A stretch of DNA of 64,000 bases. Origin: Bacillota bacterium (GTDB lineage Bacteria > Bacillota > Dethiobacteria > DTU022 > UBA8154). The notes under the pieces were generated by a model. That model made no database searches. It saw only the letters and a list, made by a program, of their open reading frames with translations, and was not told the DNA's origin. Positions 20,494 to 60,876 of this stretch are shown piece after piece; within the stretch, counting starts at the first letter, position 1, and every line of letters begins with the position of its first letter. The DNA is taken from positions 8,724-72,723 of the forward strand of contig JAUSPO010000039.1 in the NCBI GenBank assembly GCA_030656575.1. Reading direction: 5' to 3'. Position numbers and translations under genes: made by a program.

Positions 20494-20570
20494 ATAACGG
20501 TGCCTGGCACTTAACTTATTAACTTATTGTCACCATTGCGGATTCCTGACCCACTCTATAAAAGTTTTCG

Positions 20571-20600
20571 TTGACACCTTTTCTTTTTATTGTTTATAAT
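20571..20600 (+). promoter_or_regulatory. Consensus sigma-A promoter TTGACA-N18-TATAAT for the tupABC operon
   Basis: Exact -35 and -10 hexamers. About 185-nt structured leader follows before tupA. Confidence 0.55.
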
Positions 20601-20784
20601 AGCTATAAGGTAGATTAATTTACTATAAAATATGTTCTCGTTCAAGTAAGGGTTGTTTTTTTGAAAAGGCCGCTGTCGAAGTTTGGCAGAGGGTGATTTT
20701 TTTTGCCCCCAATATGCACGGCTGTGCATATTGGGAAAAGATAATTGAATTTGAAGCACCAAATACGAAAAGGGGTTGTTAAAA

Positions 20785-21630: not shown

Positions 21631-21692
21631 GTATAACATACCAGACGACATTAACGAGCTAAAAAGCTGATGAAAGTATGAGGATTGATTAA

Positions 21693-37626: not shown

Positions 37627-39216
37627 ATGACTTTGCAGCATGAAGAGCTAAAAAAACAGGTAAACAGCAGACGCACATTTGCCATCATTTCACACCCGGA
37701 TGCTGGAAAAACAACCATGACGGAGAAATTGCTGCTTTACGGCGGGGCAATCCGACTTGCCGGTTCCATTAAGGGGAGAAAGACAAAGAAGTATGCCGCC
37801 TCTGACTGGATGGAGATGGAAAGGGAGAGAGGTATTTCCATCACTTCCAGCGTTCTGCAGTTCTCTTATAATGGCTACCGCATAAATATCCTGGACACGC
37901 CGGGGCACCAGGACTTCAGTGAGGACACATACCGCACCCTGACCGCGGCGGACTGCGCACTGATGATGATCGACATGGCTAAAGGAGTGGAAGCGCAGAC
38001 GGAAAAACTCTTTAAAGTATGTCGTATGCAGGGTATCCCCATTTTTACCTTTATCAACAAACTGGATCGCCACGGCCGCGAGCCTCTGGAGCTGCTGGAT
38101 GAAATTGAGAATGTGCTGGGTATTGGCTCCTGTCCATTAAACTGGCCGGCTGGTCTGGCTTCCGGCAGTTACGGGCTTTACGACAGACGGCTGCAAAAAC
38201 TGGAGCTCTGCCAGGGTGGTCAGATTAGTGAAATTGTTCCCTCAAACGGACGGGGCCTTGAAGATGCAGCGATCCAAAATGCCCTGGAAGGTTCCTTTTA
38301 TGAGAAACTGAAGCAGGAAATGGAGCTGCTTGATGGTGCCGGGAATAAATTTGAGCTGGATAAAGTAAAAAAAGGACTCCTGACGCCGGTGTTTTTCGGC
38401 AGCGCGATCAGCGGTTTTGGCATAGAAACGTTTTTTCACGAATTTCTCAAAATGGCCCCGCCGCCGGCAGGGAAGAAGGCTGATGCCGGTCTTATAGAGC
38501 CCACGGCAAATAAATTTTCCGGATTTATCTTCAAGATCCAGGCCAATATGAACCCGGCCCACCGGGACCGCATTGCCTTTTTGAGGGTTTGCTCCGGTAA
38601 ATTTGAACGGGATAAGGTGGTTACCCTTGTGCGCACGGGCAAAAATATCAGGCTTTCGCAGCCGCAGCAATTCCTGGGTCAAAATCGAAATATCGTGGAA
38701 GAGGCCTATCCAGGAGATATTATCGGCTTATTTGACCCCGGCCTTTACCAGATTGGGGATACTTTATGTGAAGACGGGTCCTTCAAGTTTGAAAAACTGC
38801 CCCGTTTTTCGCCGGAACTGTTTGCCAAAGTAACGGCCCGAGATGCCACAAAATACAAACACTTTCATAAGGGACTTTCCCAATTGGCAGAGGAAGGCGC
38901 TGTCCAAATATTTAAGGTGCCAAGAACAGAGGAAATTATCCTGGGAGTTGTTGGAGAGCTGCAGTTCGAAGTATTTCAGCACAGGCTCCAATCAGAATAC
39001 GGCGCAGCAGTAAACCTGCAGCGCCTGCCATACCAATTGGCCCGCTGGGTCATGAATCCGGATCCGGAAACACTTTCCCGGTTGAGGAGCTTTGTAGTAA
39101 AAGACGAAAAGGACCAAACGGTTATCCTCTTTGAAAACGAATTCTCGTTAAATTATGCCAAAGATAAGAATCCGTCCGTAACCCTGTATTCCCTGGAGGA
39201 ATGTCCTATCGTTTAA
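37627..39216 (+). CDS. prfC: Peptide chain release factor 3
   Basis: GTPase motifs AIISHPDAGKTT, DTPGH, NKLD; RF3 length. Start at MTLQ with AAGGA 8 nt upstream. Confidence 0.9.
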   Translation: MTLQHEELKKQVNSRRTFAIISHPDAGKTTMTEKLLLYGGAIRLAGSIKGRKTKKYAASDWMEMERERGISITSSVLQFSYNGYRINILDTPGHQDFSEDTYRTLTAADCALMMIDMAKGVEAQTEKLFKVCRMQGIPIFTFINKLDRHGREPLELLDEIENVLGIGSCPLNWPAGLASGSYGLYDRRLQKLELCQGGQISEIVPSNGRGLEDAAIQNALEGSFYEKLKQEMELLDGAGNKFELDKVKKGLLTPVFFGSAISGFGIETFFHEFLKMAPPPAGKKADAGLIEPTANKFSGFIFKIQANMNPAHRDRIAFLRVCSGKFERDKVVTLVRTGKNIRLSQPQQFLGQNRNIVEEAYPGDIIGLFDPGLYQIGDTLCEDGSFKFEKLPRFSPELFAKVTARDATKYKHFHKGLSQLAEEGAVQIFKVPRTEEIILGVVGELQFEVFQHRLQSEYGAAVNLQRLPYQLARWVMNPDPETLSRLRSFVVKDEKDQTVILFENEFSLNYAKDKNPSVTLYSLEECPIV

Positions 39217-39425
39217 GAGATCTTGAAAAAACGCTGTTAAGAATCCGACATTGGTCTGATGGCAGCGGACGGGTGGCGGCGGTGGAAGTGCTGATCATCT
39301 TACGGGTGGACCTTTATCTCAGGGAAGGATGAGACAGCAGTCTGATTAAACGAAAATTATTTCCTGAACATAGGTGCACTTCAGTTGACTCTCCTTACTA
39401 TTTAATAATAATTTGCTAATTTGAA

Positions 39426-39743
39426 TTAAATAAGCTCTTTTATTTTAGCCAATACTTCCTCCAGACGAAAGGGTTTGTAAATGATGTCCTGATAGGTTCC
39501 TTCTGGCGGAAAATCAACATCATTCTTCTCTGAACCCGTAACAATGATTACGGGCAATTCGTATAATAAGGGGTTTTGCCGCAGCTTATGAATAACCATT
39601 TTCCCGCTTGTACCCGGCATCTTTAAATCTACCATTACCAGATCAGGTGGGGACTCACTGTTGAGCTTGATTAGCCCTTCATCGCCATCATATGCCGTAA
39701 GTATATGGTAACCTACATCGGACAGAAATTCTTCAAAAATCAT
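39426..39743 (-). CDS. Single-domain CheY-like receiver protein lacking the N-terminal beta1/acidic-pocket segment (possibly truncated)
   Basis: Phospho-acceptor Asp (VDLKMPG), Thr (IIVTG) and Lys (YKPF) equivalents are present. The protein starts within alpha1, with no upstream in-frame start before a stop. Confidence 0.45.
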   Translation of the reverse strand: MIFEEFLSDVGYHILTAYDGDEGLIKLNSESPPDLVMVDLKMPGTSGKMVIHKLRQNPLLYELPVIIVTGSEKNDVDFPPEGTYQDIIYKPFRLEEVLAKIKELI

Positions 39744-40073
39744 GACTAGGCTTTGTTGAATGTTGTAAGGTTTTGTTGATAACTTGCAGTTTTAGCTGGC
39801 AACTATTTTAACACTGGGCATTCAGACCCTGAACAAGGAGATAAAAATGTTGGAAGGTATGACTGAGTATGAAAAACCCCTGCCGGAAAGACCACCCGTT
39901 TCCACGAGGTACCTGGACGTAATGAGGATGTCTTCATATTCCGCACCATTTTATGGGGTTTGCAGGAGGCACAGGACCACCACTTGAGCCCTGTTCTTTG
40001 AGGTAGCACAAAAGGAAAGCCCTCATTTCACAATCTGGTTTCTGGAGTTCGTCATAAAGGAATTTAGATAGTA

Positions 40074-41933
40074 TTATGCTTTTATATATTTCCTGCGCTT
40101 AAAAAAGAAGAGCATGATTATCCCGGCAATTATGGCTGCTCCCGATACCAGCAATAAAGTTAAAGCAGCCTTGTCTATGGCTTGGGGCTGCCCGGTGCCC
40201 ATGCCAAAACGAGGGTTTCCGCCGGGGTCTCCTCCCGGCCATATACCGCGGGACATCCCACCGCCATCAGGAAAACCTGCCATCATTTCGGCTATATTCT
40301 CAGGAATTCCTAACTCTCCGGCTTTTTCCCGCAGTTCGTCATTGAGGCCTCCTGCCTGCAAAATCTCCTGCCTGAGGGTCTCCATTGCTGCTATGTCCAA
40401 TCCTTCAGGAATTACCATACCTCCTGGCTGCCGGCCGCCGCCATCCCAGGCAGGCCTTTCGGTATTTTCACCAGGGCGCTGCTGAGGGGGGATTCGACCT
40501 CCATCAATATTGCGCACTCCGCCTCCGCCCATTCCTCCCATGCCGCTGCCGTTGTTTCTGGAAGGCAGCTCACCGCTAAGCTGATTTTGTATTAATTCGG
40601 ACATTGCAGCGGCAAGCTCAAGAATCCCTGGAACATTGCCGCCAAAACCCTGCACTCCACCCATCCTGAAGCCCTGGTTTCCGGACACATTGTTTGCCTC
40701 CGGTATATTCGGCACAACTTCTGCCTGGTTTTCATCCCCCATGGCACCGCCCGCAATAGTACCGGAAATGCTTCTTTCAAACTGCTCGTAAGTATAAAAG
40801 GCCGTGGGATCTGTTCTGACGTATGGGGAAATCAGCTCAAAAAGCCGTGCTGTTTCATCTTCCAGGTAGCTGCTGCTTAAAAACTCTGTTGCAATCTCCT
40901 CAAGATAACCGTGATAGGTTTCGAGATATTCTTCATTTGCAAAGAGACTGGCGATAAGGGGTCTTTCGGCAAGCGCCCCCTGGGTCGGCTCATCAATATA
41001 CACACTTGTAGCATCACCACCAAAGCTAAAACCGCCAAAGGACATGTTTAAATCCCATGGGAGTATTGTAAAAACGCCGTTTTGCTCATAGAGGTAGTAA
41101 TTGTGCCCCATTCTGCCCTGGTAGCTGTCAAAATTGGCCAGGGCGGTGCTGACGGCGATGTACCTTAGCGCCGCGTCAACATCGAGATATTTTTCCAGAT
41201 CACCATCGTTATTTAAAGCGTCGAGCATCCTTATCAGCCTGGACCAGTCGGCATTCTTGCGGTCACTTTTAACTTCGAGGCCTGTATAGTCGGCCGGATT
41301 GGTGCCGTTATACCTAAGGGTATTGCCCACAGATTTGTACAGGTCTCCGGTAATGTTCCCAAAGTTCCTTTCCAGATAGGGTTCCAATATGCTCTCAACC
41401 GCGAGGTAGAGGCCGAAATAGTCCCCGTTTACATACACGGCGGCAAAGGCAAAGGCTGGAACGGCCACCCCCATCTCCTCGAAGATCTGATAGGAGAGAT
41501 ACTCACGCATATAGGATGGGTCGGAAAAGCCGTTGTTCAGATTCAGCTGGGTAAGCCCCGCCATGGTCTGGTTTTTAACTAAGCTATCGAAATTTATTTT
41601 GAAGCTGTAACGGTTGCTGTCACTGCGTGCGACCGACATGAGACTGGAATTCCCTTTAGTCCTTATCCTCACCGACGGGTAGATATCGCCGTTTACCGTT
41701 ACCGTCGCCGGGTGGAACTTCTCTGCCATGGGGTTTTCCATCATGTTTTCCCAATCAGCCTCGCTGATTCCAATGTTAACATCCATTACTTCATCTCTTT
41801 GAAAGTACCTGCTTACATATTCGTCGCCGTATACAGTAACTTTGCCGGTGCCGAAAGCCGTGTAAGCGAAAACAAATAAGGCCGTAAATATTACCATTAC
41901 TAATGATAGCAAGATAATCCTGTTATTTGTCAT
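40074..41933 (-). CDS. cotH: CotH-family (spore coat protein H-like kinase fold) protein with N-terminal TM anchor, Gly/Pro-rich low-complexity region and C-terminal TM
   Basis: CotH motifs (LNLNNGFSDPSYMREY, NYYLY, DLNMSFGG). Confidence 0.75.
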   Translation of the reverse strand: MTNNRIILLSLVMVIFTALFVFAYTAFGTGKVTVYGDEYVSRYFQRDEVMDVNIGISEADWENMMENPMAEKFHPATVTVNGDIYPSVRIRTKGNSSLMSVARSDSNRYSFKINFDSLVKNQTMAGLTQLNLNNGFSDPSYMREYLSYQIFEEMGVAVPAFAFAAVYVNGDYFGLYLAVESILEPYLERNFGNITGDLYKSVGNTLRYNGTNPADYTGLEVKSDRKNADWSRLIRMLDALNNDGDLEKYLDVDAALRYIAVSTALANFDSYQGRMGHNYYLYEQNGVFTILPWDLNMSFGGFSFGGDATSVYIDEPTQGALAERPLIASLFANEEYLETYHGYLEEIATEFLSSSYLEDETARLFELISPYVRTDPTAFYTYEQFERSISGTIAGGAMGDENQAEVVPNIPEANNVSGNQGFRMGGVQGFGGNVPGILELAAAMSELIQNQLSGELPSRNNGSGMGGMGGGGVRNIDGGRIPPQQRPGENTERPAWDGGGRQPGGMVIPEGLDIAAMETLRQEILQAGGLNDELREKAGELGIPENIAEMMAGFPDGGGMSRGIWPGGDPGGNPRFGMGTGQPQAIDKAALTLLLVSGAAIIAGIIMLFFFKRRKYIKA

Positions 41934-41950
41934 AAACCTGCACTCCCTTT

Positions 41951-42625
41951 TTAGGATGCATATTCCCCGCTGAAGCTCACCAGGGATGTATTAGTGACGC
42001 CCGGGATTGCTGTCAGTTCGTTTACAAACTGCGTTTCCCCGCCTTTTAAGCGTATCTCCAGAACAAGTTCAATGCCTTTTGATGCTGTAACGGTTTTGGA
42101 TTTCACACGATATTTGGAAAACTTCTTTTTCATCAGCCCTATGGTTTCACTCTCGGCACTTTCATCCGTGCAATTGATGATAACGATGTAAGGCATATCA
42201 ACCACATTTTTGCTGACAAAAGCGACAAGAGTAAGACCGATAATTACCGAACCCAGTACGGCGACAGGAATAAATCCGGCCCCAAGGATTATGCCGGTGC
42301 CTATTGCCCAGAAGAGAAAGACTAAATCCATGGGGTCTTTTATGGGAGTGCGGAATCGGACGATGGAAAGGGCGCCCACCATGCCGAGGGAAAGAACGAC
42401 GTTGGAAGTTACGGTAAGGATGACCACAGTGGTGAGCATTGTAAGCAGCAGAAGCGAAATGTTGAACGGCCGTGAATACATGACGCCTGAAAAAGTCTTT
42501 TTGTAGATAAGATAGATAAACATACCCACGAGGAAAGCGGCACCCAAGGCTATAACTGCATCAATGAAGGAAAAACCGGATACCTTTTCCAGAAAACTTG
42601 ATTTAAAAATATCATTAAATGTCAT
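41951..42625 (-). CDS. DUF4956-domain membrane protein
   Basis: N-terminal SFIDAVIALGAAFLVGMFIYLIY pattern and 4-5 TM helices. Conserved partner of VTC-domain and CotH proteins. Confidence 0.6.
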   Translation of the reverse strand: MTFNDIFKSSFLEKVSGFSFIDAVIALGAAFLVGMFIYLIYKKTFSGVMYSRPFNISLLLLTMLTTVVILTVTSNVVLSLGMVGALSIVRFRTPIKDPMDLVFLFWAIGTGIILGAGFIPVAVLGSVIIGLTLVAFVSKNVVDMPYIVIINCTDESAESETIGLMKKKFSKYRVKSKTVTASKGIELVLEIRLKGGETQFVNELTAIPGVTNTSLVSFSGEYAS

Positions 42626-42648
42626 ATTCTCTTACTCCTTTCAATTGT

Positions 42649-43341
42649 TCACATATATTGGCGGCAGGCCGCATATTTTGAAACCGGTGTTGATGTGCAT
42701 TTGTTCAACTGGACGATATCCTGGATAAACTCCGGCAAGAACCCGTCATATTTTACCTCGAGGATGCAGAGGCCTTTATCTATGGCTGACGCGGTTGGCA
42801 GGTCCTCATCAAAAAGGTCGGTGGAACTTATAGATGCTTTAATGTCAAAATCCATGGTGATCCGCACATTTCCCGCGGGGTGGAGATAAGCCTCCCGCAT
42901 ATAATCCACCACTGTTCTGGGAAGAAGTCTTTCTGTCTTGATCCTGAGGTAAAGCTCCCTCAGCAGTGCCTGGTCAGAGTCTCTGAGAAAGCCTATCTCA
43001 CCACTTAGGATACTTTGCACATCCTCTTTTGTTAACGTTGCTTTAAGCTTTGTGCCCTTGCCGAAATATTTAATTTTTTTCTCCAGGCGGATAAAGCTGT
43101 GGTTGTGATTGTAGAAACGGATGCGGAATTTTTCCTTGATTGGAAGTCCCTCTAACTTTTCATGGAGGGCCTTGTTCTCCGGCGTATCGAAATAGAGACT
43201 GCGGATATGGTATCTGCCGTCCGGCCCGGCGTTCTGGTCAGGGCGCAGCAGGCAGGACAGCCTGCTTCTGATCACCAGCGCATCCGCCTGAGTCACCACA
43301 TGCTTTAGTTCATTGCGGAACTTTAAGTTGTTCATAAACAT
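42649..43341 (-). CDS. VTC-domain (polyphosphate-polymerase/CYTH-like) protein
   Basis: ELKHVV...RSLYFDTPE...RIRFY motifs typical of the bacterial VTC domain. Confidence 0.65.
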   Translation of the reverse strand: MFMNNLKFRNELKHVVTQADALVIRSRLSCLLRPDQNAGPDGRYHIRSLYFDTPENKALHEKLEGLPIKEKFRIRFYNHNHSFIRLEKKIKYFGKGTKLKATLTKEDVQSILSGEIGFLRDSDQALLRELYLRIKTERLLPRTVVDYMREAYLHPAGNVRITMDFDIKASISSTDLFDEDLPTASAIDKGLCILEVKYDGFLPEFIQDIVQLNKCTSTPVSKYAACRQYM

Positions 43342-43719
43342 AAATAATCACCTCACTTTCCTTCCAGAAGGGTAAGCGTTCCGGAAAAGGTTTGACCATT
43401 CCGGTATAACTTAACGGGGATTTCATCGCCAACTTTGTGCAGCATCTGTCTGGATAAGAGTGTCAGCCACATTTTCAGCATTAACTTTGCGGTCAATATG
43501 CAATAAGCCTGACCTTCAATACGTTTCCTATTTTGCCGGACATAACCTCAAAACCCCTTTCATTTTATTCTTTATGCTTTATTCTAGCTTAGAACTTGTC
43601 TACAAATCACCGAAAAGAGACGGTAAAAATAACGCAAAGTTGCCGCAAAAAAAAGAACGGGGCAGCAAAAAAGCACTTCCGTTCTCTGTGATATTCTATT
43701 CTGATTGCGAGGTTTGTTT

Positions 43720-45144
43720 TTAAAAGGTAATAGTGAAGGCGGTTCCCTGAGCGGTGTTCTTAGCTTCAATTTTGCCGCTGTGCTGCTCGATTACCGATTT
43801 TACTATGGAAAGCCCTATGCCGTGTTTGCCCCCGTTGGCTTTATAAAAACGGTCAAAGATATGAGGAAGGTCTTCCTTCGATATACCTTCGCCATCATCG
43901 ACCACAGCAATGGTTATTCCACCGTATGGACGGTGGCAGGAAATGGTGATCTTGCTTTTTGCATATCTGATGGCGTTTGAGATAAGATTGGAAAAAGCCC
44001 GGGAGAGACGCTTTTCATCGCAGCGCATATTCACCGGCTGATCATCAAACTCGAAAATAAACTGTAACCCCCTCTCCGCCGCCAGAGTTCTCTGGCGTTC
44101 GGCACAGTTTGAAAGAAGCTCGCGCAGATCCCATTCCTCTAAGCTGCTGTTCGTAGTTATGCTGTCGATACGCGAGAGGTAAAGCAGATCTTCAACCATT
44201 TCACTGAGGCGGTCGGTTTCACTGATGATCACCCGGCTGGATTCTTGATCGTCCAGGATCCCGTGTTCGATACCCTCTGCATTACACCTGATGGCCTGCA
44301 GTGGAGTTCGGAGCTCATGGGATATGTTTTGAAAAAATGTCTTCTGCTCTTTATCATAGGCATCAAGCTGTGCAGCCGCTTTGTTCATGCTCTCGGCCAG
44401 TTCCGCAAGCTCAATATCCCCATAATTCAAGGTATTTTTTGAAAAATCCCCCCTGCCGATTCTCATGGCAAATCGTTTTAGTTCCCTGACAGGCTCAGCG
44501 ATTTTGCCCGACAAAAAGATAGCAATGGCAGCAGCTAAAATCCCTGCCATACCCATAACCACCAGAAGAACAGTGTTGATACGATCTGCAAAGGAAGTGA
44601 TCGCTGTCATATCTATATAGTAGATTAAATACGACCTGTGCATGAACACATATTCCGGTACCTGCACTGAAACATAATAGTACTCGCTGCCTGTTGCCTT
44701 AAGCCGCATGATTTCAGTGCTCTGCAGATCTGCCTGCTCAGTCTTAAGCTGCGATGCCAAAGCAATCATCTCCTCATAGTTGTGCATGAAGATCATGTTC
44801 AAATCAGGGAAGATGAGTTCGTAATTCTCTGTAATAATTAATGCCTCAGCTTTGCCTATCTGACTCCTCGGCAGCGTTCTGATATTGGGAATGTAATCGG
44901 GCCTTTGCCCCGGCGGAGGCAGTTCAACTGGTGGCATCAGCCTAGGCGGATTTTTCTCATCAAAGACGATCTGTACTGCGTCCTTAAGTTGTTCATTTAC
45001 GCTGTTCTTAATATATTCTCCCACAAGCAGGTTGAAAACAGCAAAAACCACCAGAAAAATGACGGCAATAAGAGCGAGCACTATAGCGAGTATCCTTGTG
45101 CGGATGCTGATCTTGCGGGTATTTATTTTAAGCATCGTCCGCAC
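43720..45144 (-). CDS. Sensor histidine kinase (2 TM, HAMP-like, HisKA, HATPase_c)
   Basis: H-box HELRTPL; N, G1 and G2 boxes (DDGEGI, GIGLSIV). Confidence 0.85.
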   Translation of the reverse strand: MRTMLKINTRKISIRTRILAIVLALIAVIFLVVFAVFNLLVGEYIKNSVNEQLKDAVQIVFDEKNPPRLMPPVELPPPGQRPDYIPNIRTLPRSQIGKAEALIITENYELIFPDLNMIFMHNYEEMIALASQLKTEQADLQSTEIMRLKATGSEYYYVSVQVPEYVFMHRSYLIYYIDMTAITSFADRINTVLLVVMGMAGILAAAIAIFLSGKIAEPVRELKRFAMRIGRGDFSKNTLNYGDIELAELAESMNKAAAQLDAYDKEQKTFFQNISHELRTPLQAIRCNAEGIEHGILDDQESSRVIISETDRLSEMVEDLLYLSRIDSITTNSSLEEWDLRELLSNCAERQRTLAAERGLQFIFEFDDQPVNMRCDEKRLSRAFSNLISNAIRYAKSKITISCHRPYGGITIAVVDDGEGISKEDLPHIFDRFYKANGGKHGIGLSIVKSVIEQHSGKIEAKNTAQGTAFTITF

Positions 45145-45838
45145 GCTCCTTCAGGCGAAAACCGAAACCCCATACCGTATCTATGACCGTCCTGCTGCAC
45201 GACAGCTTCTTGCGAAGCCTTCTTACTGTGTCATCGGCAGCCCGTGTCTCCACTTCGCTGTTATATCCCCATACTTTGTTGAGCAGTTCGTCCCTTGAGA
45301 TGGCCCGGTCTTTATTTTCAATGAGATAGGATAAGAGGTTGTATTCGTTTGGCGAAAGTTCTAAAGGCAGATCATCAAGCTTCACTGTTTTATTCTGCAG
45401 ATCTATTTGTATATCAGCATAGGTAAGAAGACGCGGCGAAGAATTTTCTTCACCCGCTTTATCAAATTCTATCCTGCGGAATATTGCTTTAACCCGCATG
45501 ACAAGGGAGATGGCGGAAAAGGGCTTGGTAAAATAGTCATCGCTGCCGAGGTTTATCCCTGTGGCGTAATCCAGGTCGCTGTCGCGCGCTGTGAGCATGA
45601 TGATGGGCACTGTGCTTAGCTTGCGCAGTTCTGAGCAAACGGTAAAGCCGCCGGAGCCAGGCATCATCACGTCGAGGATCACAAGGTCGCATGCTTTATC
45701 TTTAAAAGCAGCGAGCAGCTTATCGCCGTCCTCAAAAGCGGTGACGCCATACCCTTCACTCTCGAGAAAGGATTTGACTACATCCCGTATGTTTTGTTCG
45801 TCATCTGCAATATATATGGATTTACACATGCTTTCCAT
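45128..45838 (-). CDS. OmpR-family response regulator (REC + winged-helix)
   Basis: DD..D57 (LVILDVMMPG), T, K residues. C-terminal trans_reg_C (VWGY...RLRKKL). Confidence 0.85.
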   Translation of the reverse strand: MESMCKSIYIADDEQNIRDVVKSFLESEGYGVTAFEDGDKLLAAFKDKACDLVILDVMMPGSGGFTVCSELRKLSTVPIIMLTARDSDLDYATGINLGSDDYFTKPFSAISLVMRVKAIFRRIEFDKAGEENSSPRLLTYADIQIDLQNKTVKLDDLPLELSPNEYNLLSYLIENKDRAISRDELLNKVWGYNSEVETRAADDTVRRLRKKLSCSRTVIDTVWGFGFRLKERADDA

Positions 45839-46584
45839 GCCTCCAGTTTCTTCACCATCATTATAAGTTGACCGGCAGGTTAAATCTCCGTAGATTTGAT
45901 AGGAATTTGCCGCAAAACTACCGCAGTTCCCCAGTGATAGGATATTTCGATATTACCAAATAAAATACCTTTGGGCATTTTTTCATTTTTTTGCCTTAGA
46001 AAGCTACACAGCATATACTGGAGGCTTCTCCAAGGGAACGGAAAAGGATGGAATCTATACTGGAGGAAGCTACAATGGTGGGATCGAACTTGTTGTCATT
46101 AAGTCCGGAACAGGATTCCAGCAGAACATGATGTCCGGACGGGGTGAACAAAATCCAGGATGCCCCCTGGAACAAAGGAAGAGTACCTGATGCAAGATGA
46201 TTGGGTAACTCGACTCTCAAAGATTAAATCTTATCTGCCTTAATGGGCGGAGGGGGGAAAGGTGGTCAATAAGAATAAAAAAATGGGGCAAAATATTACT
46301 GTTGTAATTAAAAATATAAAAGGATATAGGGAGACAGAAGTGACAAACATTCAACTTCCACATGATATTTTAATTACCTCTCTGAAAGAGAATTAACCCT
46401 CTATAAATCTGAAGAAATTATTTAATGATTCCACTGCAAAAAGTCGATTTCTTGATTTGATAAAGATTTATTCCCCACTTATCAGAGGAAAAAGCGCTAT
46501 ATTTGATACCAGAACACCATAATTGCACCATTATTAAGGCTTTTCCCCCACTTTGGATATGCAATGAAGAAAAAAGAGCATTTA

Positions 46585-46961: not shown

Positions 46962-47036
46962 TGGTGGGGCTGCAGGGATTTGAACCCTGGACCTCTTGAA
47001 TGTGAGTCAAGCGCTCTCCCCCTGAGCTACAGCCCC
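46962..47036 (-). tRNA. tRNA-Val (anticodon CAC)
   Basis: 75-nt cloverleaf GGGGCUG/CAGCCCC acceptor, D-arm GCUC-AGGGGGAG-GAGC, anticodon stem CUUGA/UCAAG with loop CUCACAU, T-arm CAGGG-UUCAAAU-CCCUG, encoded CCA. Confidence 0.85.
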
Positions 47037-55811: not shown

Positions 55812-56339
55812 ATGGTGGATTATGAACTAAAAAACCGCATTATAATGAAAGAAATCTTCTCATCTTTCAGGGGAACAGAGAACGAGCTTATTCCAATTTT
55901 ACAACATGTGCAGGAGCATTTCGGGTACCTGCCGGAGAGCGCTATGCTTGAAGTCGCCAGGTTTATATCCGTGTCCGAGAGCAAAGTTTATGCTACAGCC
56001 TCGTTTTACAGTCAGTTCAGATTTAAAGCCACAGGTAAAAAACATATTACCGTGTGTCAGGGGACAGCATGTCATGTCCGGGGAGCCGGGAAAATCCAGG
56101 ACACCCTTGAACGGCAGCTGGGCATAAAAGAGGGTGAAACAACCGCCGACCAGGAATACAGCCTGGAAGCTGTTGCCTGTATTGGATGTTGTGCCCTTGC
56201 ACCCTGTATAGCCGTTAACAATGAAACTATCTATGGCCGGCTGACTCCACAAAAAGTGAAAGTTGTTCATGAACCGATTAGAGGGGAGAGAAAAAATGGC
56301 CAAAAGAACCATTCTGGTCAGCCAGGGAACATGCTGTAA
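55812..56339 (+). CDS. NuoE-like [2Fe-2S] subunit of NAD(P)-dependent formate dehydrogenase (FdsG/HndA-like)
   Basis: Thioredoxin-like [2Fe-2S] motif (CxxxxC...CxxxC: CQGTACHVRG...CIGCCALAPC). Confidence 0.75.
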   Translation: MVDYELKNRIIMKEIFSSFRGTENELIPILQHVQEHFGYLPESAMLEVARFISVSESKVYATASFYSQFRFKATGKKHITVCQGTACHVRGAGKIQDTLERQLGIKEGETTADQEYSLEAVACIGCCALAPCIAVNNETIYGRLTPQKVKVVHEPIRGERKNGQKNHSGQPGNML

Positions 56340-58089
56340 ATCAGCAGGGGCGGAGCAGGTATATACTGCCCTGAAAAAAGAAGCAGTTAAGTGGGGCCTG
56401 GAAGATGAAGTAGAGTTTAAACAACCGGGCTGCCATGGCTTTAGTCAAATAGATCCGGCAGTGATTATTGAGCCGGATGGTCTTTTGTTCGCTGGTGTTA
56501 AAGAAGAAAATGCATCGGAAATTATGCAATCCCTTTTACCAGGGAGAAGGCCGCCGGAACACCTTTTTTACACGGAACCTCACAGCAGTAATACAATTCC
56601 TTATAAACAGAAAATCCCTTTTTTCAGCAGGCAGCAGAGATTTATACTTCACAATTGCGGCACTATCGATCCCGGCAGCATTGAGGATTACGTAAAAGGC
56701 GGAGGTTATGAGGCCTTACACAAGGCAGTGTATGAGATGACCCCTCTTCAGGTAATTGCCGAAATAGAGGATTCCGGCTTAAGAGGCCTCGGAGGTGGCG
56801 GGTTCCTTGCAGGAAATAAATGGAGATTATGTTACCAGTCCCCAGGTGATCAAAAGTATCTTATTTGTAACGCGGATGAGGGAGATCCGGGTTCATTTCA
56901 GGACCGTTCCCTTTTGGAGGGAGATCCTCATGCGGTTTTAGAAGGAATGCTGATTGCAGGTTATGCAGTTGGGGCCACAAAAGGATATATCTATGTACGT
57001 GCAGAATACCCCCTGGCTATAAAAAGGCTGCAGATCGCTTTACAACAGGCCAGGGAACAGGAATTGGTGGGAAAGAACATCCTGGGGAGTGATTTTTCGT
57101 TTGAAATGGAAATCTTTCAAGGCGCCGGTGCTTTTGTTTGCGGTGAAGAGACTGCCCTCCTGCAGTCCCTTGGAGGAAAAAGGGGTATGCCTTATCCCCG
57201 GCCTCCCTACCCGGTTGTTTCAGGACTTCACGGCCAACCAACTCTTATTAATAATGTAAAAACTCTGGCCAGTATACGCTGGATTATTAATAATGGTGCA
57301 GGCTGGTTTAGGGCAAAAGGAACGGAAAAGAGTAAAGGTACTGTTGTTTTTTCCTTATCGGGCAAGGTAGTTAACTGCGGCCTCGTGGAAGTGCCTATGG
57401 GTATTTCCCTGCGGGAGATCATCTTTGGTATTGGCGGTGGAATTCCGGGTGAAAAGGCTTTTAAGGCAGTGCAAACCGGGGGGCCTTCGGGCGGCTGTTT
57501 ACCGGCAGATCTGCTGGATACCGCTGTTGATTTTGATACGCTCAGGGATGCCGGTTCTATCATGGGCTCCGGGGGTATGGTGGTTATGGATGAAGATACC
57601 TGCATGGTTGACACTGCCCGCTTTTTTCTTGCATTTAGTTTAAAGGAGTTATGCGGCCAGTGTACTACCTGCCGGTTAGGGACAAGGCAGATGCTTGAGA
57701 TATTAAACAGGATTACCAGGGGAGAGGGCAGGCCTTCTGATCTTGATCTGCTTATACAGTTGGGTGAGGTGGTCGCACAGGGATCTCTTTGTGGGCTGGG
57801 CAGGACTGTCCCCAATCCGGTTCTTACGACTTTGCGCTATTTCAGGGATGAGTACGAAGCGCATATTAACGAAAAACGATGCCCTGCCCGTGTCTGTAAA
57901 GATTTAATAACCTACCGTATTGATCACGAAAAATGTAAAGCCTGTTCCCTATGTCTTAAGGCCTGCCCCACCGCAGCCATTAAAGGCAACAAAAAACAGG
58001 CATATTTAATAGAACAGGACAGGTGTGTGAGGTGTGGAACATGCCTGGACCTTTGTGCAGATCGTTTTGGAGCCATAGAATGTATTTAA
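56296..58089 (+). CDS. NuoF-like NAD(P)H-binding FMN/[4Fe-4S] subunit (FdsB/HndC-like) with N-terminal [2Fe-2S] thioredoxin-like module and C-terminal 2x[4Fe-4S] ferredoxin
   Basis: SQGTCC motif, NuoF glycine-rich NADH/FMN motifs (GLRGLGGGGF, GAGAFVCGEETAL), C-terminal CxxCxxCxxxCP x2. Confidence 0.8.
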   Translation: MAKRTILVSQGTCCKSAGAEQVYTALKKEAVKWGLEDEVEFKQPGCHGFSQIDPAVIIEPDGLLFAGVKEENASEIMQSLLPGRRPPEHLFYTEPHSSNTIPYKQKIPFFSRQQRFILHNCGTIDPGSIEDYVKGGGYEALHKAVYEMTPLQVIAEIEDSGLRGLGGGGFLAGNKWRLCYQSPGDQKYLICNADEGDPGSFQDRSLLEGDPHAVLEGMLIAGYAVGATKGYIYVRAEYPLAIKRLQIALQQAREQELVGKNILGSDFSFEMEIFQGAGAFVCGEETALLQSLGGKRGMPYPRPPYPVVSGLHGQPTLINNVKTLASIRWIINNGAGWFRAKGTEKSKGTVVFSLSGKVVNCGLVEVPMGISLREIIFGIGGGIPGEKAFKAVQTGGPSGGCLPADLLDTAVDFDTLRDAGSIMGSGGMVVMDEDTCMVDTARFFLAFSLKELCGQCTTCRLGTRQMLEILNRITRGEGRPSDLDLLIQLGEVVAQGSLCGLGRTVPNPVLTTLRYFRDEYEAHINEKRCPARVCKDLITYRIDHEKCKACSLCLKACPTAAIKGNKKQAYLIEQDRCVRCGTCLDLCADRFGAIECI

Positions 58090-58116
58090 CCAAGGACCAA
58101 AGGAGGCTTTGCAGCA

Positions 58117-60876
58117 ATGCAGGAAGTTAAACTCGTTATTGATAATCTGGAAATCACTGTTCAGGAAGGGACAACTGTTTTGGAGGCTGCCCTGCAAAAC
58201 GGTATTTATATCCCACACCTTTGTCATCATCCTGATTTAAAACCGGCTGGAATTTGCCGCCTGTGTATGGTGGATGCAGACGGGCAGATGCTGGTTTCCT
58301 GCCGAGCTGCTGCTGCAGAGGGAATGGTCGTTAAAACAGGAACCCCGGCAGTGGAAAAAGTCCGCCGGTTAGCTGTGGAACTTCTTATTGCCGAACATGA
58401 TGCAGAATGTCTTACCTGTGGGAAAAACTTTAACTGCAAGCTGCAGGAAGTAACCCGCTTTGTGCAAATTGACAGAGAACGGCTCCAAGAACTGAAGGCT
58501 TCCGAGCGAAAGCCTGTGGATAATTCCCACCCGTTTATTACCAGGGACTATAATAAATGTGTGTTGTGCGGTATTTGTGTACGCACATGCGATGAAATCC
58601 AGGGTGCAGGTGCCATTGATTTTGCTTTAAGAGGTTATGCCACAAAAATAAGCACCTTTGGAGATAATCCATTGCGGGAGTCTGCATGTGAATCCTGTGG
58701 GGAATGTGTGGAACGCTGTCCTGTGGGAGCGCTATTACCTGTGGGTTTTCAACAGCCGTCCCGGGAGGTGGAAACTGTATGTCCATTCTGCGGTACTGGC
58801 TGCGGTCTTTTTTTGGGTGTCAGAGGAGATAAACTGGTCAGTGCCCGGGGGAATCCAAGACATACGACAAATAAAGGACGACTATGTGTTAAAGGACGTT
58901 TTGGCTGGAGCTTTGTTAATAGTCCGGAAAGGTTACAGGCTCCCCTGATTAAAAAAGACGGCCGTTTTGTGGAGGCGGGCTGGGATGAAGCACTTGATCT
59001 GGTTGCCGGCAAACTGTCGCAATACAGGGGGGAAGAGGCAGGTGTTTTTGCCAGCGCTAAAACCAGCAATGAAGAGATTTATATGGCTTCAAAGTTTGCC
59101 CGCGTGGTTTTGGGCACCAACAATATTGCCAATGTTGCTCACCTGTGTCATGCAAATACCGTCCGCGGGCTTCTTCCGGTTACCGGTAGTGCCGGTATGA
59201 CTGTTCCTGCCTGGCAGATCAGGGAATCTGCTTGCTTTTTTGTTGCCGGATGTAACCCTACTGAAGCACACCCCGTTATTGGATTGGAGATACGAAAGGC
59301 TGTCAGGGAAGGGGCCAGGTTAATTATTGCTAACCCTAAAGAAATTTCCCTATGCCGTTTACCCCATCTTCGCCTTCCTCTCAGGCCGGGAACTGATGCT
59401 GCCCTGATCATGGGAATGGCTAAGGTTATCCTCGACGAAGGACTATTGGATGAAAAATTTATCGCGGAGAGAACTATCAATTTTGAAGCTTTTAAAAAGT
59501 CCCTGGAGATCTTCAGCCTAAATGAGGCCGAAGAGGTTACAGGTGTATCAAAAGACCTGATCCGGGAGGCGGCACGGGTATATGCTTCCAGTAAACCGGC
59601 TCTTATTTTCTGGGCCATGGGCATTACACAGCATTCACACGGTCATAACAACGTATGGGCCCTGGCCCACCTGGCAATGATGACAGGGAATTACGGGAAG
59701 CCCGGCGCAGGTGTTGCTCCGCTGCGGGGACATAACAATGTGCAGGGGGCTACTGATATGGGTGCCACTCCCGCCTGGTATCCCGGTTATCAGCTTTGCC
59801 CCGGTTATGAGCTGTACCCGCGTTTTAATAAGTTTTCATCCAGCCAGGAGAAGTTTGAAAAGGCATGGGGTTACAAATTGCCGGATTCTCCCGGACTATC
59901 AACGGTAAAACAATTTAATGTTAAGGCAAAGGGTTGGGGTGGGGCCGCCATGCGGGATTTGCAGCAGAAAATTAAGGCCTGGTATATTATTGGGGCTGAT
60001 CTTGTTAACGGAGTGGCTGAATCGGGACATGTGAGGCGAAGCCTGGAAGAGGCTGAATTTGTTGTTGTTCAGGATATCTTTTTAACTGAAACAGCCAAAA
60101 TGGCGGATGTTGTACTGCCTGCTGCCTGTTTTGCCGAAAAAGACGGAACTTTTACTTCCACAGATCGCAGGGTGCAAAGAATTCACAAGGTCTTGGAGCC
60201 ACCCGGCAAAGCTAAAGCGGATTGGTGGATTACCTCTGAGATTGCCCGCCGGATGGAATACAGTGGGTTTGATTTTCAAAATCCGGGGCAAATTATGGAT
60301 GAAATAGCTTCGCTTGTTCCCATCTATGGTGGTATCAGTTATGAACGCCTGAAAGAAGAGGAACTTCGCTGGCCATGTATTGATAAAAACCATCCGGGGA
60401 CGCCTGTTTTGCATGTTGACCAGTTTATAAAGATTGAGAAGGCCGAATTCTGGCCCCTTGAATATATACCGTCTCCTGAACTGCCGGACGAGGACTTCCC
60501 GTTGATCATGACTACAGGTCGTACCCTTCCCCATTTTCATTATAATATGACCAGGAAAGTTGAAGGATTAAATAAGCTGTGCCCGGAAGACTTTGTGGAA
60601 ATTAATGAGATAGATGCGGCTGACCTTCATATTCAAAGCGGTGATAATATAAAGGTTATCTCCCGCCGTGGCAGTGTTGTGAGTAAAGCAATGGTCAGCA
60701 ACAGAATTATTCCCGGGGTTGTTTTTAAAACGATTCATTTTATTGAAAGCCCTACAAATATGCTGACTTCTTCGGAATTTATTGACCCGATGGGAACCAC
60801 TCCCAATACCAAGGTTTGCCCGGTCAGAATAGAAAAAGTTGCAATCAGGAAATTAGAAGGTTTGGGTGAAAAGTAA
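58117..60876 (+). CDS. fdhA: Formate dehydrogenase catalytic subunit (FdhA/FdsA-type molybdopterin/tungstopterin oxidoreductase), Cys-type
   Basis: N-terminal [2Fe-2S] + [4Fe-4S] clusters, then CPFCGTGC, then Mo/W-bisPGD domain. The active-site residue is Cys (VAHLCHANTV) where Sec-type enzymes have U. No in-frame TGA. Confidence 0.85.
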   Translation: MQEVKLVIDNLEITVQEGTTVLEAALQNGIYIPHLCHHPDLKPAGICRLCMVDADGQMLVSCRAAAAEGMVVKTGTPAVEKVRRLAVELLIAEHDAECLTCGKNFNCKLQEVTRFVQIDRERLQELKASERKPVDNSHPFITRDYNKCVLCGICVRTCDEIQGAGAIDFALRGYATKISTFGDNPLRESACESCGECVERCPVGALLPVGFQQPSREVETVCPFCGTGCGLFLGVRGDKLVSARGNPRHTTNKGRLCVKGRFGWSFVNSPERLQAPLIKKDGRFVEAGWDEALDLVAGKLSQYRGEEAGVFASAKTSNEEIYMASKFARVVLGTNNIANVAHLCHANTVRGLLPVTGSAGMTVPAWQIRESACFFVAGCNPTEAHPVIGLEIRKAVREGARLIIANPKEISLCRLPHLRLPLRPGTDAALIMGMAKVILDEGLLDEKFIAERTINFEAFKKSLEIFSLNEAEEVTGVSKDLIREAARVYASSKPALIFWAMGITQHSHGHNNVWALAHLAMMTGNYGKPGAGVAPLRGHNNVQGATDMGATPAWYPGYQLCPGYELYPRFNKFSSSQEKFEKAWGYKLPDSPGLSTVKQFNVKAKGWGGAAMRDLQQKIKAWYIIGADLVNGVAESGHVRRSLEEAEFVVVQDIFLTETAKMADVVLPAACFAEKDGTFTSTDRRVQRIHKVLEPPGKAKADWWITSEIARRMEYSGFDFQNPGQIMDEIASLVPIYGGISYERLKEEELRWPCIDKNHPGTPVLHVDQFIKIEKAEFWPLEYIPSPELPDEDFPLIMTTGRTLPHFHYNMTRKVEGLNKLCPEDFVEINEIDAADLHIQSGDNIKVISRRGSVVSKAMVSNRIIPGVVFKTIHFIESPTNMLTSSEFIDPMGTTPNTKVCPVRIEKVAIRKLEGLGEK

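Follow-up and report, generated by a model that had tools for sequence, protein, structure and literature searches.

The VTC-domain, DUF4956 and CotH genes described here, together with the response regulator and sensor kinase genes upstream of them, make up one unit of five genes. We infer, with a probability of roughly 40%, that this unit is a sensor-controlled envelope module, in which polyphosphate would be made at the membrane and passed to an extracytoplasmic partner. The trio itself has already been described as an accessory of Gram-positive pel operons, and in the window (the whole stretch of 64 kb that was analyzed) it stands alone.

Gene Cassette and Its Neighborhood

The original prediction had pointed to three co-directional genes for VTC-domain, DUF4956 and CotH proteins, and all three were found as open reading frames on the minus strand, with each domain call above its Pfam gathering cut-off. 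What it had missed were the regulator and kinase genes upstream and the MgtC-like nature of the DUF4956 protein. The features of the unit are as follows:

45128-45838, minus strand, OmpR/PhoB-type response regulator, 236 aa (Pfam Response_reg and Trans_reg_C)
43720-45144, minus strand, sensor histidine kinase, 474 aa (HAMP, HisKA, HATPase_c)
43647-43687, minus strand, terminator-like hairpin and U-run after the kinase gene, weak in the window
43632-43649, minus strand, direct repeat with a period of 11 bp, TTTGCGG-N4-TTTGCGT, a candidate operator at which the response regulator would control the VTC operon
42649-43341, minus strand, VTC-domain gene, ORF of 230 aa
41951-42625, minus strand, DUF4956 gene, ORF of 224 aa
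40074-41933, minus strand, CotH gene, ORF of 619 aa
41862-41918, minus strand, CotH N-terminal transmembrane (TM) helix or signal anchor, aa 6-24 (hydropathy)
40767-41666, minus strand, CotH kinase domain, aa 90-389, predicted to be extracytoplasmic
40164-40748, minus strand, CotH Gly/Pro/Met-rich low-complexity tail, aa 396-590 (composition)
40101-40157, minus strand, CotH C-terminal TM helix, aa 593-611 (hydropathy), followed by the basic tail KRRKYIKA

The gaps between the VTC and DUF4956 genes and between the DUF4956 and CotH genes are 23 and 17 nt in the window, and the median spacing of the third gene in the surveyed loci is 14 nt. A strict DUF4956 peptide pattern matched at least 598 species-representative genomes, from which 80 loci were fetched as a sample. 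The VTC gene lay directly upstream of the DUF4956 gene on the same strand at 75 of the 76 testable positions, and the CotH gene directly downstream at 64 of 73. The trio thus recurs across Firmicutes, as had been predicted; the prediction would have been undermined by domain searches that failed or by a gene order unique to this genome, and neither is the case, since Pfam confirms the domains and the order is widespread. A genuine fusion of VTC and DUF4956 was not found; the long matches are partial chimeras. Among the matches listed, the hosts included C. difficile, Butyrivibrio, and metagenome-assembled genomes (MAGs) whose record titles label them Caldisericia and Chloroflexota, and many of the host taxa are spore formers. 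We know of no sporulation in Butyrivibrio, Caldisericia, streptococci or bifidobacteria, the last two of which carry the cassette according to PMC7112168.

The neighbors of the cassette in the window are genes for RF3, a methyltransferase, an MFS transporter, and the two-component system. Only the regulator and kinase families recurred beside the cassette in the 80 loci; the next real recurrent neighbor, an ABC ATPase, was present in 13. No pel-type gene family recurred in these loci, and no pel-type glycosyltransferase, HEAT-repeat, deacetylase or exopolysaccharide (EPS) gene was found in the 64-kb window among its ORFs of 200 aa or more. As only two-component genes recur beside the trio and no pel genes are nearby, the module is autonomous. 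This contradicts PMC12345266, which states that the synteny of the trio is not found outside pel loci.

Two-Component System and Candidate Operator

The regulator and kinase genes overlap by 17 nt. Two TM helices of the kinase (residues 18-36 and 192-210) flank an extracytoplasmic sensor region of about 155 aa, and the protein is 69% identical to its positional counterpart in Sporotomaculum syntrophicum. The complete order regulator-kinase-VTC-DUF4956-CotH is also present in the Sporotomaculum locus (L085) and in a further locus (L004), and an OmpR-type regulator and a kinase were found within 3.5 kb of the cassette in 22 of 38 loci. The hairpin behind the kinase gene folds with -13.7 kcal/mol (z -1.15) in the window and is followed by eight U, while its positional homologue in L085 reaches -22 kcal/mol (z -4.06).

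The direct repeat upstream of the VTC gene is the single match to TTTGC-N6-TTTGC in the 64-kb window. It is conserved between the window and the Sporotomaculum locus, and L004 and a C. difficile locus (L002) also have this box, 85-110 nt ahead of their VTC genes. Perfect 7-mer repeats spaced by exactly 11 bp occurred upstream of the VTC gene in 21 of 77 loci (0.67 expected), whereas at other spacings they were at background; when 8-mers with one mismatch were allowed at the 11-bp spacing, the count rose to 35 of 75 loci (3.4 expected). Judged from this pattern, the candidate operator appears to be of the response-regulator type, which would place the VTC operon under its own two-component system. 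It shares with the Pho-box-type operators of the OmpR/PhoB family the two direct repeats at 11 bp, one helical turn, upstream of an operon and the adjacent gene of the cognate regulator. Unlike in Pho boxes, the half-sites vary by lineage (TTTGCSN in the window), and only those of a few loci resemble the Bacillus PhoP box, TT(A/T/C)ACA.

The VTC Protein Has a Complete Vtc4-Type Active Site

The 230-aa VTC protein consists only of the VTC domain and has no TM helix. It matches Pfam VTC (PF09359) with an E-value of 2e-42 and 145.8 bits (gathering cut-off 23), its residues 8-229 covering profile positions 1-233 of 235. Ten of its residues, namely K13, R73, R75, K89, Y147, R149, R160, E195, S221 and K222, correspond to Vtc4 K200, R264, R266, K281, Y359, R361, R373, E426, S457 and K458 (numbering checked against 8i6v_E), and all ten are invariant in 30 of 30 homologues. 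These residues of Vtc4, its triphosphate and Mn ligands among them, are needed for polyphosphate synthesis by the enzyme, which is inactivated by R264A/R266A/E426N. Position 458 is Lys in active Vtc4 and Ile or Leu in the inactive Vtc2 and Vtc3; K222 at this position is Lys in every one of the 30 homologues. In the AlphaFold2 (AF2) model (pLDDT 90.7, pTM 0.87), the top 13 Foldseek matches in the PDB were all Vtc4, Vtc3 or Vtc2, the best being Vtc4 (E 3.6e-12, TM 0.70), and ygiF and other tunnel enzymes ranked below the Vtc4 structures. By these signatures, the protein is a cytoplasmic, Vtc4-like triphosphate-tunnel protein with a closed beta-barrel. The bacterial family has in addition an invariant Glu in the tunnel, E11 (of RNELK), with T198 at the Vtc4 counterpart; E11 is reminiscent of the ExExK motif found in hydrolytic tunnel enzymes. 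To our knowledge, polyphosphate synthesis has not been demonstrated for any bacterial VTC-domain protein.

DUF4956 Is a Distant Relative of MgtC

The DUF4956 protein is the sole polytopic membrane protein of the unit, with 4-5 TM helices. It matches PF16316 with 34.6 bits (gathering cut-off 30.6), as do all 20 aligned homologues. Its AF2 model has five helices followed by an ACT-like beta-alpha-beta-beta-alpha-beta domain (residues 144-217). The best fold match of the protein in the PDB was the C-terminal domain of MgtC (2lqj, E 4.3e-4), and ACT domains came next. The matches to MgtC PF02308 (13.8 bits, cut-off 31.4) and, over the full length, to NCBIfam PRK09977 (21.7 bits, cut-off 214) are below the cut-offs; however, such sub-threshold MgtC matches were consistent in 17 of 20 members, and several homologues carry the IMG label YhiD. 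The protein is a distant relative of the MgtC/SapB/YhiD group, with which it shares an N-terminal part made of 4-5 hydrophobic helices and an ACT-like domain in the cytoplasm, and from which it differs by its own signature, scores far below the cut-offs, and its pairing with the VTC gene. Its most conserved segment, LGMVGALSIVRFRTxIKDPxD, is oriented towards the cytoplasm, like the ACT-like domain, and no basic residues were seen inside its TM helices. We know of no MgtC-family protein that acts as a channel.

CotH and Its Natural Replacement

The CotH protein matches PF08757 (E 8e-70, 236.3 bits, cut-off 23.8) and is homologous to PDB 5jd9 (E 1.7e-22). Its D269, N278 and D294 align with D224, N229 and D247 of the B. 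cereus enzyme, so the catalytic residues, which the original prediction had proposed to check, are kept; this catalytic Asp, Asn and metal-binding Asp are 98-100% conserved among 64 sequences. The 23-residue spacing of the two Asp residues agrees with that of D228 and D251 in B. subtilis CotH, the mutants of which are inactive. The membrane anchoring and the Gly/Pro-rich region had been foreseen correctly: the N-terminal helix is present in 63 of 63 orthologues, the C-terminal helix with the basic tail is shared with most of them, and residues 396-590 contain 22.6% Gly and 8.2% Pro, with conserved short motifs in the segment immediately past the kinase domain. The TM helices at either end predict that the kinase lies outside the cytoplasm, and the streptococcal CotH homologue has been reported as secreted or surface-located.

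In most of the loci without CotH as the third gene, this place is taken by a Cthe_2159 beta-helix protein (7 loci), a membrane-anchored member of a carbohydrate-binding family. Its layout is that of CotH: an N-terminal TM helix, a globular domain, a Gly/Met-rich tail, and a C-terminal TM helix; one such locus has the order regulator-kinase-VTC-DUF4956-Cthe_2159. The exchange of CotH for a protein of like layout argues that the VTC-DUF4956 pair delivers something to the outside.

Proposed Function and Alternatives

In the envelope module that we favor, a signal at the sensor kinase would lead the regulator to turn on the VTC operon. The VTC protein would bind to DUF4956 on the cytoplasmic side of the membrane and polymerize the gamma-phosphate of ATP into polyphosphate, and DUF4956, alone or aided by the third protein's TM helices, might move the chain or phosphoryl groups across the membrane, a step that is wholly conjectural. 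The extracytoplasmic partner would then use, bind or attach the product at the cell surface. In the case of CotH, polyphosphate may replace scarce ATP as the phosphoryl donor, or may become attached to a wall protein or a polysaccharide. The CotH enzymes of Bacillus are protein kinases that depend on ATP, and we know of no case of polyphosphate as the donor for a protein-kinase-like fold. The more specific version, a polyphosphate synthase-translocase whose membrane part is non-homologous to the VTC pore and which feeds CotH with a donor or with material for surface attachment, is a tentative proposal that we consider doubtful.

Such a module would be the functional equivalent, in bacteria, of the eukaryotic VTC synthase-translocase, in which, in yeast, polyphosphate synthesis is coupled to translocation. 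The two systems have in common the catalytic tunnel domain with all triphosphate and Mn ligands and the K458 equivalent, Vtc4 being the best structural match, and the genetic tie of a soluble synthase to a small polytopic membrane protein. However, the bacterial cassette lacks the SPX domain and the Vtc1-type three-helix DUF202 membrane domain, and its membrane partner is unrelated and MgtC-like; the Vtc1 pore is lined with Lys and Arg, whereas the DUF4956 helices are free of basic residues. The non-homologous subunit would stand for Vtc1, and the two-component system and the ACT-like domain for the SPX control, which in eukaryotes responds to inositol pyrophosphates. The extracytoplasmic kinase and the extra tunnel Glu are additions of the bacterial cassette.

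Whether the product leaves the cytoplasm is where the strongest competitor departs from the envelope module. According to it, the unit serves intracellular phosphate or energy homeostasis: VTC-made polyphosphate stays in the cytoplasm, DUF4956 is an MgtC-like regulator that would modulate the ATP synthase, phosphate uptake or a histidine kinase, and CotH acts separately at the surface with a donor such as released ATP. This reading, possible though in our view improbable, fits the resemblance of DUF4956 to MgtC, which in works cited in PMC12345266 affects the F1Fo ATP synthase and PhoR-dependent phosphate metabolism, as well as the absence of a cationic pore and the proposal by the S. intermedius authors that polyphosphate may stay cytoplasmic. 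The deletions described for S. intermedius are also in its favor: those of the DUF4956 and CotH homologues shift aggregation and Pel levels in opposite directions, and that of the VTC homologue has no aggregation phenotype (PMC12345266), a pattern not expected of a strict linear pathway. It leaves unexplained, however, why the third gene almost always encodes an extracytoplasmic, membrane-tethered protein, CotH or mostly Cthe_2159 otherwise, and why the pairing survives the exchange of this partner. A different chemistry, that of a tunnel enzyme which hydrolyzes or cyclizes triphosphates or nucleotides and is not a polymerase, its product being sensed by the ACT-like domain of DUF4956, is suggested by the invariant E11, absent from Vtc4, by matches of the model to triphosphatases and class IV cyclases, which share the tunnel fold, and by the small-ligand-sensing role of ACT domains. 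Given the complete Vtc4 ligand set, including the Lys specific for active Vtc4, and the rank of Vtc4 structures above all hydrolases and cyclases, we hold it to be quite unlikely.

The same S. intermedius phenotypes could be read as signs of an accessory role in the formation of an exopolysaccharide such as Pel: CotH would phosphorylate the polymer or the proteins that synthesize it, and polyphosphate would pair as an anion with a cationic polysaccharide. The trio directly adjoins pelDEADAFG in streptococci, in clostridia, and in bifidobacteria (PMC7112168), as it does in NELoc-2 of C. perfringens (CP4_0463-0465; PMC2879425). On a Planococcus plasmid the three genes are followed by HEAT-repeat and glycosyltransferase genes, on a Pseudobutyrivibrio plasmid they lie within an EPS cluster, and the carbohydrate-binding family of Cthe_2159 points the same way. 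The accessory cassettes of S. intermedius (SIR_1594-1592) and C. perfringens consist of the same three families in one operon; yet the cassette of the window is coupled to an OmpR-type two-component system, and its CotH has a tail rich in Gly and a TM helix at the C-terminus, whereas SIR_1594 has an FN3 domain. As pel or EPS genes are found neither among the window ORFs of 200 aa or more nor among the recurrent neighbors in the 80 loci, a Pel-type role as the general function is unlikely, if somewhat less so than the non-polymerase chemistry. The name CotH and the many spore formers among the hosts recall, finally, a function in the spore coat or sporulation, as for the CotH kinases of Bacillus (B. 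cereus 5jd9/5jda and B. subtilis CotH), which have the same fold, catalytic Asp, Asn and metal-binding Asp. However, the CotH of the window is held by TM helices at both ends, has a 195-aa Gly-rich tail, is predicted to be outside the cell membrane and not in the coat, and is associated with VTC, DUF4956 and a two-component system; no substrate genes with Ser/Lys/Arg repeats, such as cotB and cotG, are nearby in the window, control is apparently exerted through the two-component system and the candidate operator, and the hosts include Butyrivibrio, a Caldisericia-labelled MAG, streptococci and bifidobacteria. We therefore regard a spore function as highly improbable. Of the phosphate- or polyphosphate-linked system at the cell or spore surface that had been predicted, the first part gains from the intact active sites and from the cytoplasmic VTC and extracytoplasmic CotH, and the spore part is unsupported. 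Similarly, the statement that the trio has no assigned function holds for its biochemical function, but pel-operon descriptions and deletion phenotypes do exist.

Significance

Polyphosphate synthesis in bacteria is credited to PPK1 and PPK2. A functional Vtc4-type polymerase, present in at least hundreds of Firmicute species, would be a third route to polyphosphate. If the membrane partner exports the product, the module would be the first system known to export polyphosphate from bacteria, and could account for the phosphoryl-donor supply of secreted CotH-family kinases and for extracytoplasmic kinase chemistry despite scarce ATP, under a dedicated envelope sensor. The module is now a testable unit with a candidate operator, a regulator, catalytic residues, and a natural CotH/Cthe_2159 swap. 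Its presence in C. difficile, in NELoc-2, which is a necrotic-enteritis locus of C. perfringens (PMC2879425), and in streptococcal pel loci, which affect abscess persistence (PMC12345266), makes its function relevant to biofilm formation and virulence.

Organization and Conservation of the Module

The VTC, DUF4956 and CotH genes lie on the minus strand with gaps of only 23 nt (VTC/DUF4956) and 17 nt (DUF4956/CotH), and are preceded on the same strand by the genes of a response regulator and a sensor kinase, which overlap by 17 nt. The genes of this unit are as follows:

45128-45838 (-), OmpR-type response regulator, immediately upstream of the trio (Pfam)
43720-45144 (-), HAMP/HisKA/HATPase sensor kinase, immediately upstream of the trio (Pfam)
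42649-43341 (-), VTC-domain protein, 230 aa (Pfam VTC PF09359, E 2e-42)
41951-42625 (-), DUF4956 protein, 224 aa (Pfam PF16316, 34.6 bits against a cut-off of 30.6)
40074-41933 (-), CotH protein, 619 aa (Pfam PF08757, E 8e-70)

The three open reading frames and the Pfam domains of the original prediction, which described a VTC/DUF4956/CotH triad, were correct, but the triad was incomplete upstream, as the adjoining regulator and kinase had been missed. A Bacillota MAG contains an annotated protein identical to the DUF4956 protein of the window.

A strict DUF4956 peptide pattern matched at least 598 species-representative genomes, and the neighbourhoods of the best 80 of these loci were surveyed by extracting open reading frames and scoring them against the window proteins. 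The VTC gene was directly upstream of the DUF4956 gene and on the same strand in 75 of the 76 loci with room for it (median gap 27.5 nt), and CotH was directly downstream in 64/73 loci (median gap 14 nt). An OmpR-type regulator and a kinase were found within 3.5 kb in 22 of the 38 loci with enough flank on both sides. When the neighbouring reading frames of the 80 loci were clustered all-against-all, the regulator and the kinase were the sole other genuine recurrent families; the next, an ABC ATPase, was present in 13 loci, and the remaining clusters were antisense reading frames overlapping the three genes. Among the matches listed, the hosts were mostly Clostridia (C. difficile, Romboutsia, Butyrivibrio, and many Lachnospiraceae and Oscillospiraceae), with further hosts among relatives of Pelotomaculum and Syntrophomonas, and with MAGs labelled Caldisericia and Chloroflexota, for which MAG binning calls for caution.

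A DUF4956 profile search of 1.84 billion representatives gave 6,635 clusters at E up to 1e-3, and also a few long hits that were candidates for natural VTC-DUF4956 or DUF4956-CotH fusions. In three such metagenomic proteins (P0268, P0376 and P0383), Pfam showed that both joined domains are truncated, for example the N-terminal part of DUF4956 with a partial CotH. Such proteins probably stem from frameshifts or chimeric gene calling and mirror the adjacency of the genes; we therefore did not take them as a sign of physical coupling. We also considered whether diderms have a version that includes an outer-membrane exporter. On the Hymenobacter volaticus plasmid NZ_CP095062.1 (locus L086, 6773-8856), a distant DUF4956 gene (31% identity) lies directly before the gene of a TolC-family outer-membrane channel, with a regulator and a kinase upstream, and Pfam detected no VTC or CotH domain in the genes beside it. 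This single occurrence is a possible diderm variant, which we treat as an anecdote.

The surroundings of the module in the window contain several other features. Downstream of CotH, at a distance of 330 nt, is a stand-alone receiver-domain gene of 105 aa (39426-39743, -). The Pfam alignment of its product begins at profile position 14, so that the first receiver strand is apparently missing; the frame stays open on the upstream side but has no start codon there. The gene may be a truncated remnant, and the identical gene call is present on an independent Logan contig (L084). A single tRNA-Val gene (anticodon CAC; 46962-47036, -) is located between the two-component genes and an isochorismatase-family gene. 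Further away, the regions 16455-23124 and 56263-60876 contain two ABC transporter sets whose PBP_like_2 or SBP_bac_11 binding proteins point to oxyanion uptake, together with a pair of a NuoF-like protein and a molybdopterin oxidoreductase, which looks like an enzyme of the formate-dehydrogenase type. This gene content fits a syntrophic or acetogenic Firmicute and bears no relation to the module.

The VTC-Domain Protein Has the Triphosphate-Site Residues of Vtc4

A profile of 30 VTC homologues was matched to Vtc4 in the PDB, and the proteins were aligned after the Vtc4 sequence and numbering had been checked against chain 8i6v_E. Nine residues of the window protein correspond to Vtc4 residues as follows: K13 to K200, R73 to R264, R75 to R266, K89 to K281, Y147 to Y359, R149 to R361, E195 to E426, S221 to S457, and K222 to K458; a tenth, R160, corresponds to R373 in the HMMER alignment. 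All ten are invariant in 30/30 homologues. According to the Vtc4 literature, the listed residues hold Mn-triphosphate and their mutation lowers cellular polyphosphate, the triple mutant R264A/R266A/E426N is catalytically dead, and the inactive paralogues Vtc2 and Vtc3 deviate at K458 alone, with Ile or Leu in its place. The AlphaFold model of the window protein is confident (pLDDT 90.7), and its best PDB matches are structures of Vtc4 (E 3.6e-12, TM 0.70), above YgiF, thiamine triphosphatase and class IV cyclases. Hydropathy analysis revealed no transmembrane helix in the protein, and Pfam no SPX domain. We count the prediction of a Vtc4-like enzyme, cytoplasmic and with all its active-site residues, among the established points.

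The first strand of the protein reads R-N-E-L-K, with the Glu invariant in the family, at the position of Thr198 in Vtc4. A Glu at this position is part of the ExExK metal-binding motif of the hydrolytic members of the CYTH/TTM superfamily. Because of this additional tunnel Glu, polymerase activity of the VTC protein, as judged from its residues, is likely but not certain.

The DUF4956 Protein Is a Distant Relative of MgtC

The DUF4956 family is unusually conserved, with 52-81% identity across loci and the signature LGMVGALSIVRFRTxIKDPxD(L/I)xFLFWAIGxGIxLGAG. The AlphaFold model (pLDDT 77) consists of five helices and a C-terminal beta-alpha-beta-beta-alpha-beta domain (residues 144-217). Among PDB folds, the top match is 2lqj, the C-terminal domain of MgtC from M. 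tuberculosis (E 4.3e-4), and ACT domains rank next. Weaker evidence agrees with this: sub-threshold matches to Pfam MgtC were found in 17/20 members, NCBIfam MgtC/SapB matched over the full length (E 1.3e-4), several homologues carry the IMG label YhiD, and the homologue of S. intermedius was termed MgtC-like in a published analysis (PMC12345266). On these grounds we file DUF4956 as a distant relative of MgtC and not as a member of that family. On a count of either four or five transmembrane helices, both the ACT-like domain and the loop with the invariant RFRTxIKD are predicted to face the cytoplasm, the side where the VTC protein must be; this predicted orientation of an MgtC-like membrane protein is likewise a point that we take as established. 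Whereas the Vtc1 pore of the eukaryotic VTC is lined with Lys and Arg, DUF4956 has no basic residues inside its helices.

In C. perfringens NELoc-2, CP4_0461 and CP4_0464 are cytoplasmic-membrane proteins of 222-226 aa encoded between VTC and CotH genes and annotated as 'tubulin/FtsZ, GTPase' (PMC2879425). Their position and size make them almost certainly DUF4956 proteins, and the 'tubulin/FtsZ' label looks like an old mis-annotation that is still propagating.

CotH Is a Predicted Outward-Facing Kinase and Is Replaced in Some Loci by Another Membrane-Anchored Protein

The CotH protein aligns to B. cereus CotH (5jd9) with E 1.7e-22. As for whether it retains kinase catalytic residues, the alignment of 63 orthologues and the B. 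cereus fragment gave a positive answer: D269, N278 and D294, equivalent to B. cereus D224, N229 and D247, are 98-100% conserved. From the spacing of 23 residues, the two Asp can be equated with B. subtilis D228 and D251, and the substitutions D228Q and D251A inactivate the B. subtilis kinase (PMC7821199). Judging from these residues, the catalytic core of CotH is intact.

Hydropathy analysis placed transmembrane helices at residues 6-24 and 593-611, the second followed by KRRKYIKA; all 63 orthologues have the N-terminal helix, and most also have the C-terminal one with its basic tail. The positive-inside rule predicts that both the kinase domain (residues 90-389) and the Gly/Pro/Met-rich tail of 195 residues are outside the cytoplasmic membrane, and we regard the prediction of an outward-facing CotH with its catalytic residues as firm. 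The S. intermedius homologue has been described as secreted or surface-located. Just past the kinase domain and ahead of the Gly-rich tail, CotH (aa 438-470, about 40524-40622) and its orthologues have the short conserved motifs L..F..LRA.SI.GQL.G.IPST and LIDAS...LS.MG, and IPST may serve as a phospho-acceptor site.

In five of the nine CotH-less loci, the DUF4956 gene was followed by a gene of the Cthe_2159 family (PF14262), a beta-helix protein of a carbohydrate-binding family. The layout of this partner is that of CotH: an N-terminal transmembrane helix, a globular domain, a Gly/Met-rich low-complexity tail, and a C-terminal transmembrane helix with a basic end. A scan of metagenomes added two loci, one with the order regulator-kinase-VTC-DUF4956-Cthe_2159 (L081) and the other DUF4956-Cthe_2159.

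Cthe_2159 genes in the CotH position (coordinates within each locus)
L023, 10680-12563
L024, 2352-4376
L036, 2018-4132
L073, 6710-8569
L074, 3940-5628
L081, 6001-7899
L082, 871-2400

Since Cthe_2159 replaces CotH with the same layout, the constant core of the system, as read from the genes, is VTC and DUF4956, and the third component is an exchangeable, membrane-tethered module predicted to be extracytoplasmic.

A Candidate Operator Precedes the VTC Gene

The spacer between the kinase and VTC genes (378 nt) opens with a hairpin and a U-run; the hairpin is weak in the window and strong at the orthologous position in Sporotomaculum syntrophicum. After it comes the direct repeat TTTGCGG-N4-TTTGCGT (43649-43632, -), a candidate operator; TTTGC-N6-TTTGC matches nowhere else in the 64 kb. 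Sporotomaculum has the same regulator-kinase-VTC-DUF4956-CotH order, with a kinase 69% identical to that of the window, and retains the repeat and about 45 nt after it. The leader from the candidate operator to the VTC start is about 140 nt longer in the window than in Sporotomaculum. The same box also precedes VTC by 85-110 nt in C. difficile and a Caldisericia MAG.

Direct repeats in the 200 nt upstream of VTC (expectation from shuffles)
Perfect 7-mer repeat at exactly 11 bp: observed 21/77 loci, expected 0.67
Perfect 7-mer repeat at any one of the other spacings from 7 to 25 bp: observed 0-4, expected about 1
8-mer repeat with one mismatch allowed, at 11 bp: observed 35/75 loci, expected 3.4

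The half-sites of the 11-bp repeats vary between lineages. Operators of OmpR/PhoB-family regulators usually consist of repeats one helical turn apart. From this form and the enrichment of the 11-bp repeats, we conclude that the operon is a predicted direct target of an OmpR/PhoB-type regulator in many lineages, including at some loci without adjacent two-component genes. The tight operon linkage, the regulator and the candidate operator are also counted among the established points.

In L012, L015 and L065, loci in which adjacent two-component genes were not detected, 11-bp repeats of the form (G)TTTACA-N4/5-(G)TTTACA lie about 79, 78 and 100 nt upstream of VTC, respectively. They fit the Bacillus PhoP-box consensus, TT(A/T/C)ACA, hinting that the operon may belong to a phosphate-starvation regulon in some lineages.

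We rejected PhoR/PhoB, WalK, CpxA and heavy-metal sensors as named systems to which the two-component pair could belong, as all NCBIfam matches were well below cut-offs. Rfam detected no riboswitch or known RNA across 39000-46500, which includes the leader. A PDZ-domain remnant in a 47-codon reading frame of the leader (43353-43496, -) was a resemblance by eye only and had no Pfam match. Generic scans for sigma-70 promoters and for terminators gave no useful signal, with 19 promoter-like sites against 11.7 expected.

The Module Occurs Outside pel Loci

The trio has been reported as accessory genes beside pelDEADAFG in streptococci, clostridia and bifidobacteria (PMC7112168), and within C. perfringens NELoc-2 (PMC2879425). 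In S. intermedius, deletion of the DUF4956 or the CotH homologue reduced aggregation in artificial sputum by more than 50%, the two deletions shifting Pel levels in opposite directions, while aggregation was not altered by loss of the VTC homologue; the authors state that they saw no such synteny elsewhere than in pel loci (PMC12345266). Our survey contradicts this last statement, as there were no pel or EPS genes among the window reading frames of at least 200 aa, and no pel/EPS family recurred beside the trio in the 80 loci. EPS-linked trios were found on plasmids of Planococcus and Pseudobutyrivibrio. Thus, the trio exists in at least two contexts: an autonomous form under two-component control and a form embedded in EPS loci.

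Discussion

The proposed mechanism is that the VTC enzyme would make polyphosphate at the membrane, that polyphosphate or its phosphoryl groups would reach the outward-facing partner through DUF4956, and that this partner would use, bind or fix the product. We infer the hand-over from the split topology, the swappable partner, the need of an extracytoplasmic kinase for a phosphoryl donor, and the precedent of yeast VTC, in which synthesis is coupled to translocation. A loose parallel is found in Zetaproteobacteria, in which an ATP/ADP antiporter is encoded beside a cluster of extracellular CotH-domain proteins. The model is weakened by the predicted absence of an evident anion pore in DUF4956, by the discordant deletion phenotypes in S. 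intermedius, and by the extra Glu in the predicted VTC tunnel. To our knowledge, no protein-kinase-like fold uses polyphosphate as a donor, which is a further weakness. Weighing these points, we give the full model, from VTC-made polyphosphate via DUF4956 to an extracytoplasmic partner, a probability of about 0.4. The spore-surface or coat function that the original prediction also proposed found no support.

The trio is real and ordinary by annotation, and it is not new as a gene trio. What is added here is the five-part unit, the intact catalytic sites of the active Vtc4 type, the predicted inside/outside topology, the candidate operator, the alternative partner and the independence from pel. 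We rate the module as a predicted counterpart of the VTC system in bacteria, assembled from non-homologous parts and joined to a surface kinase.
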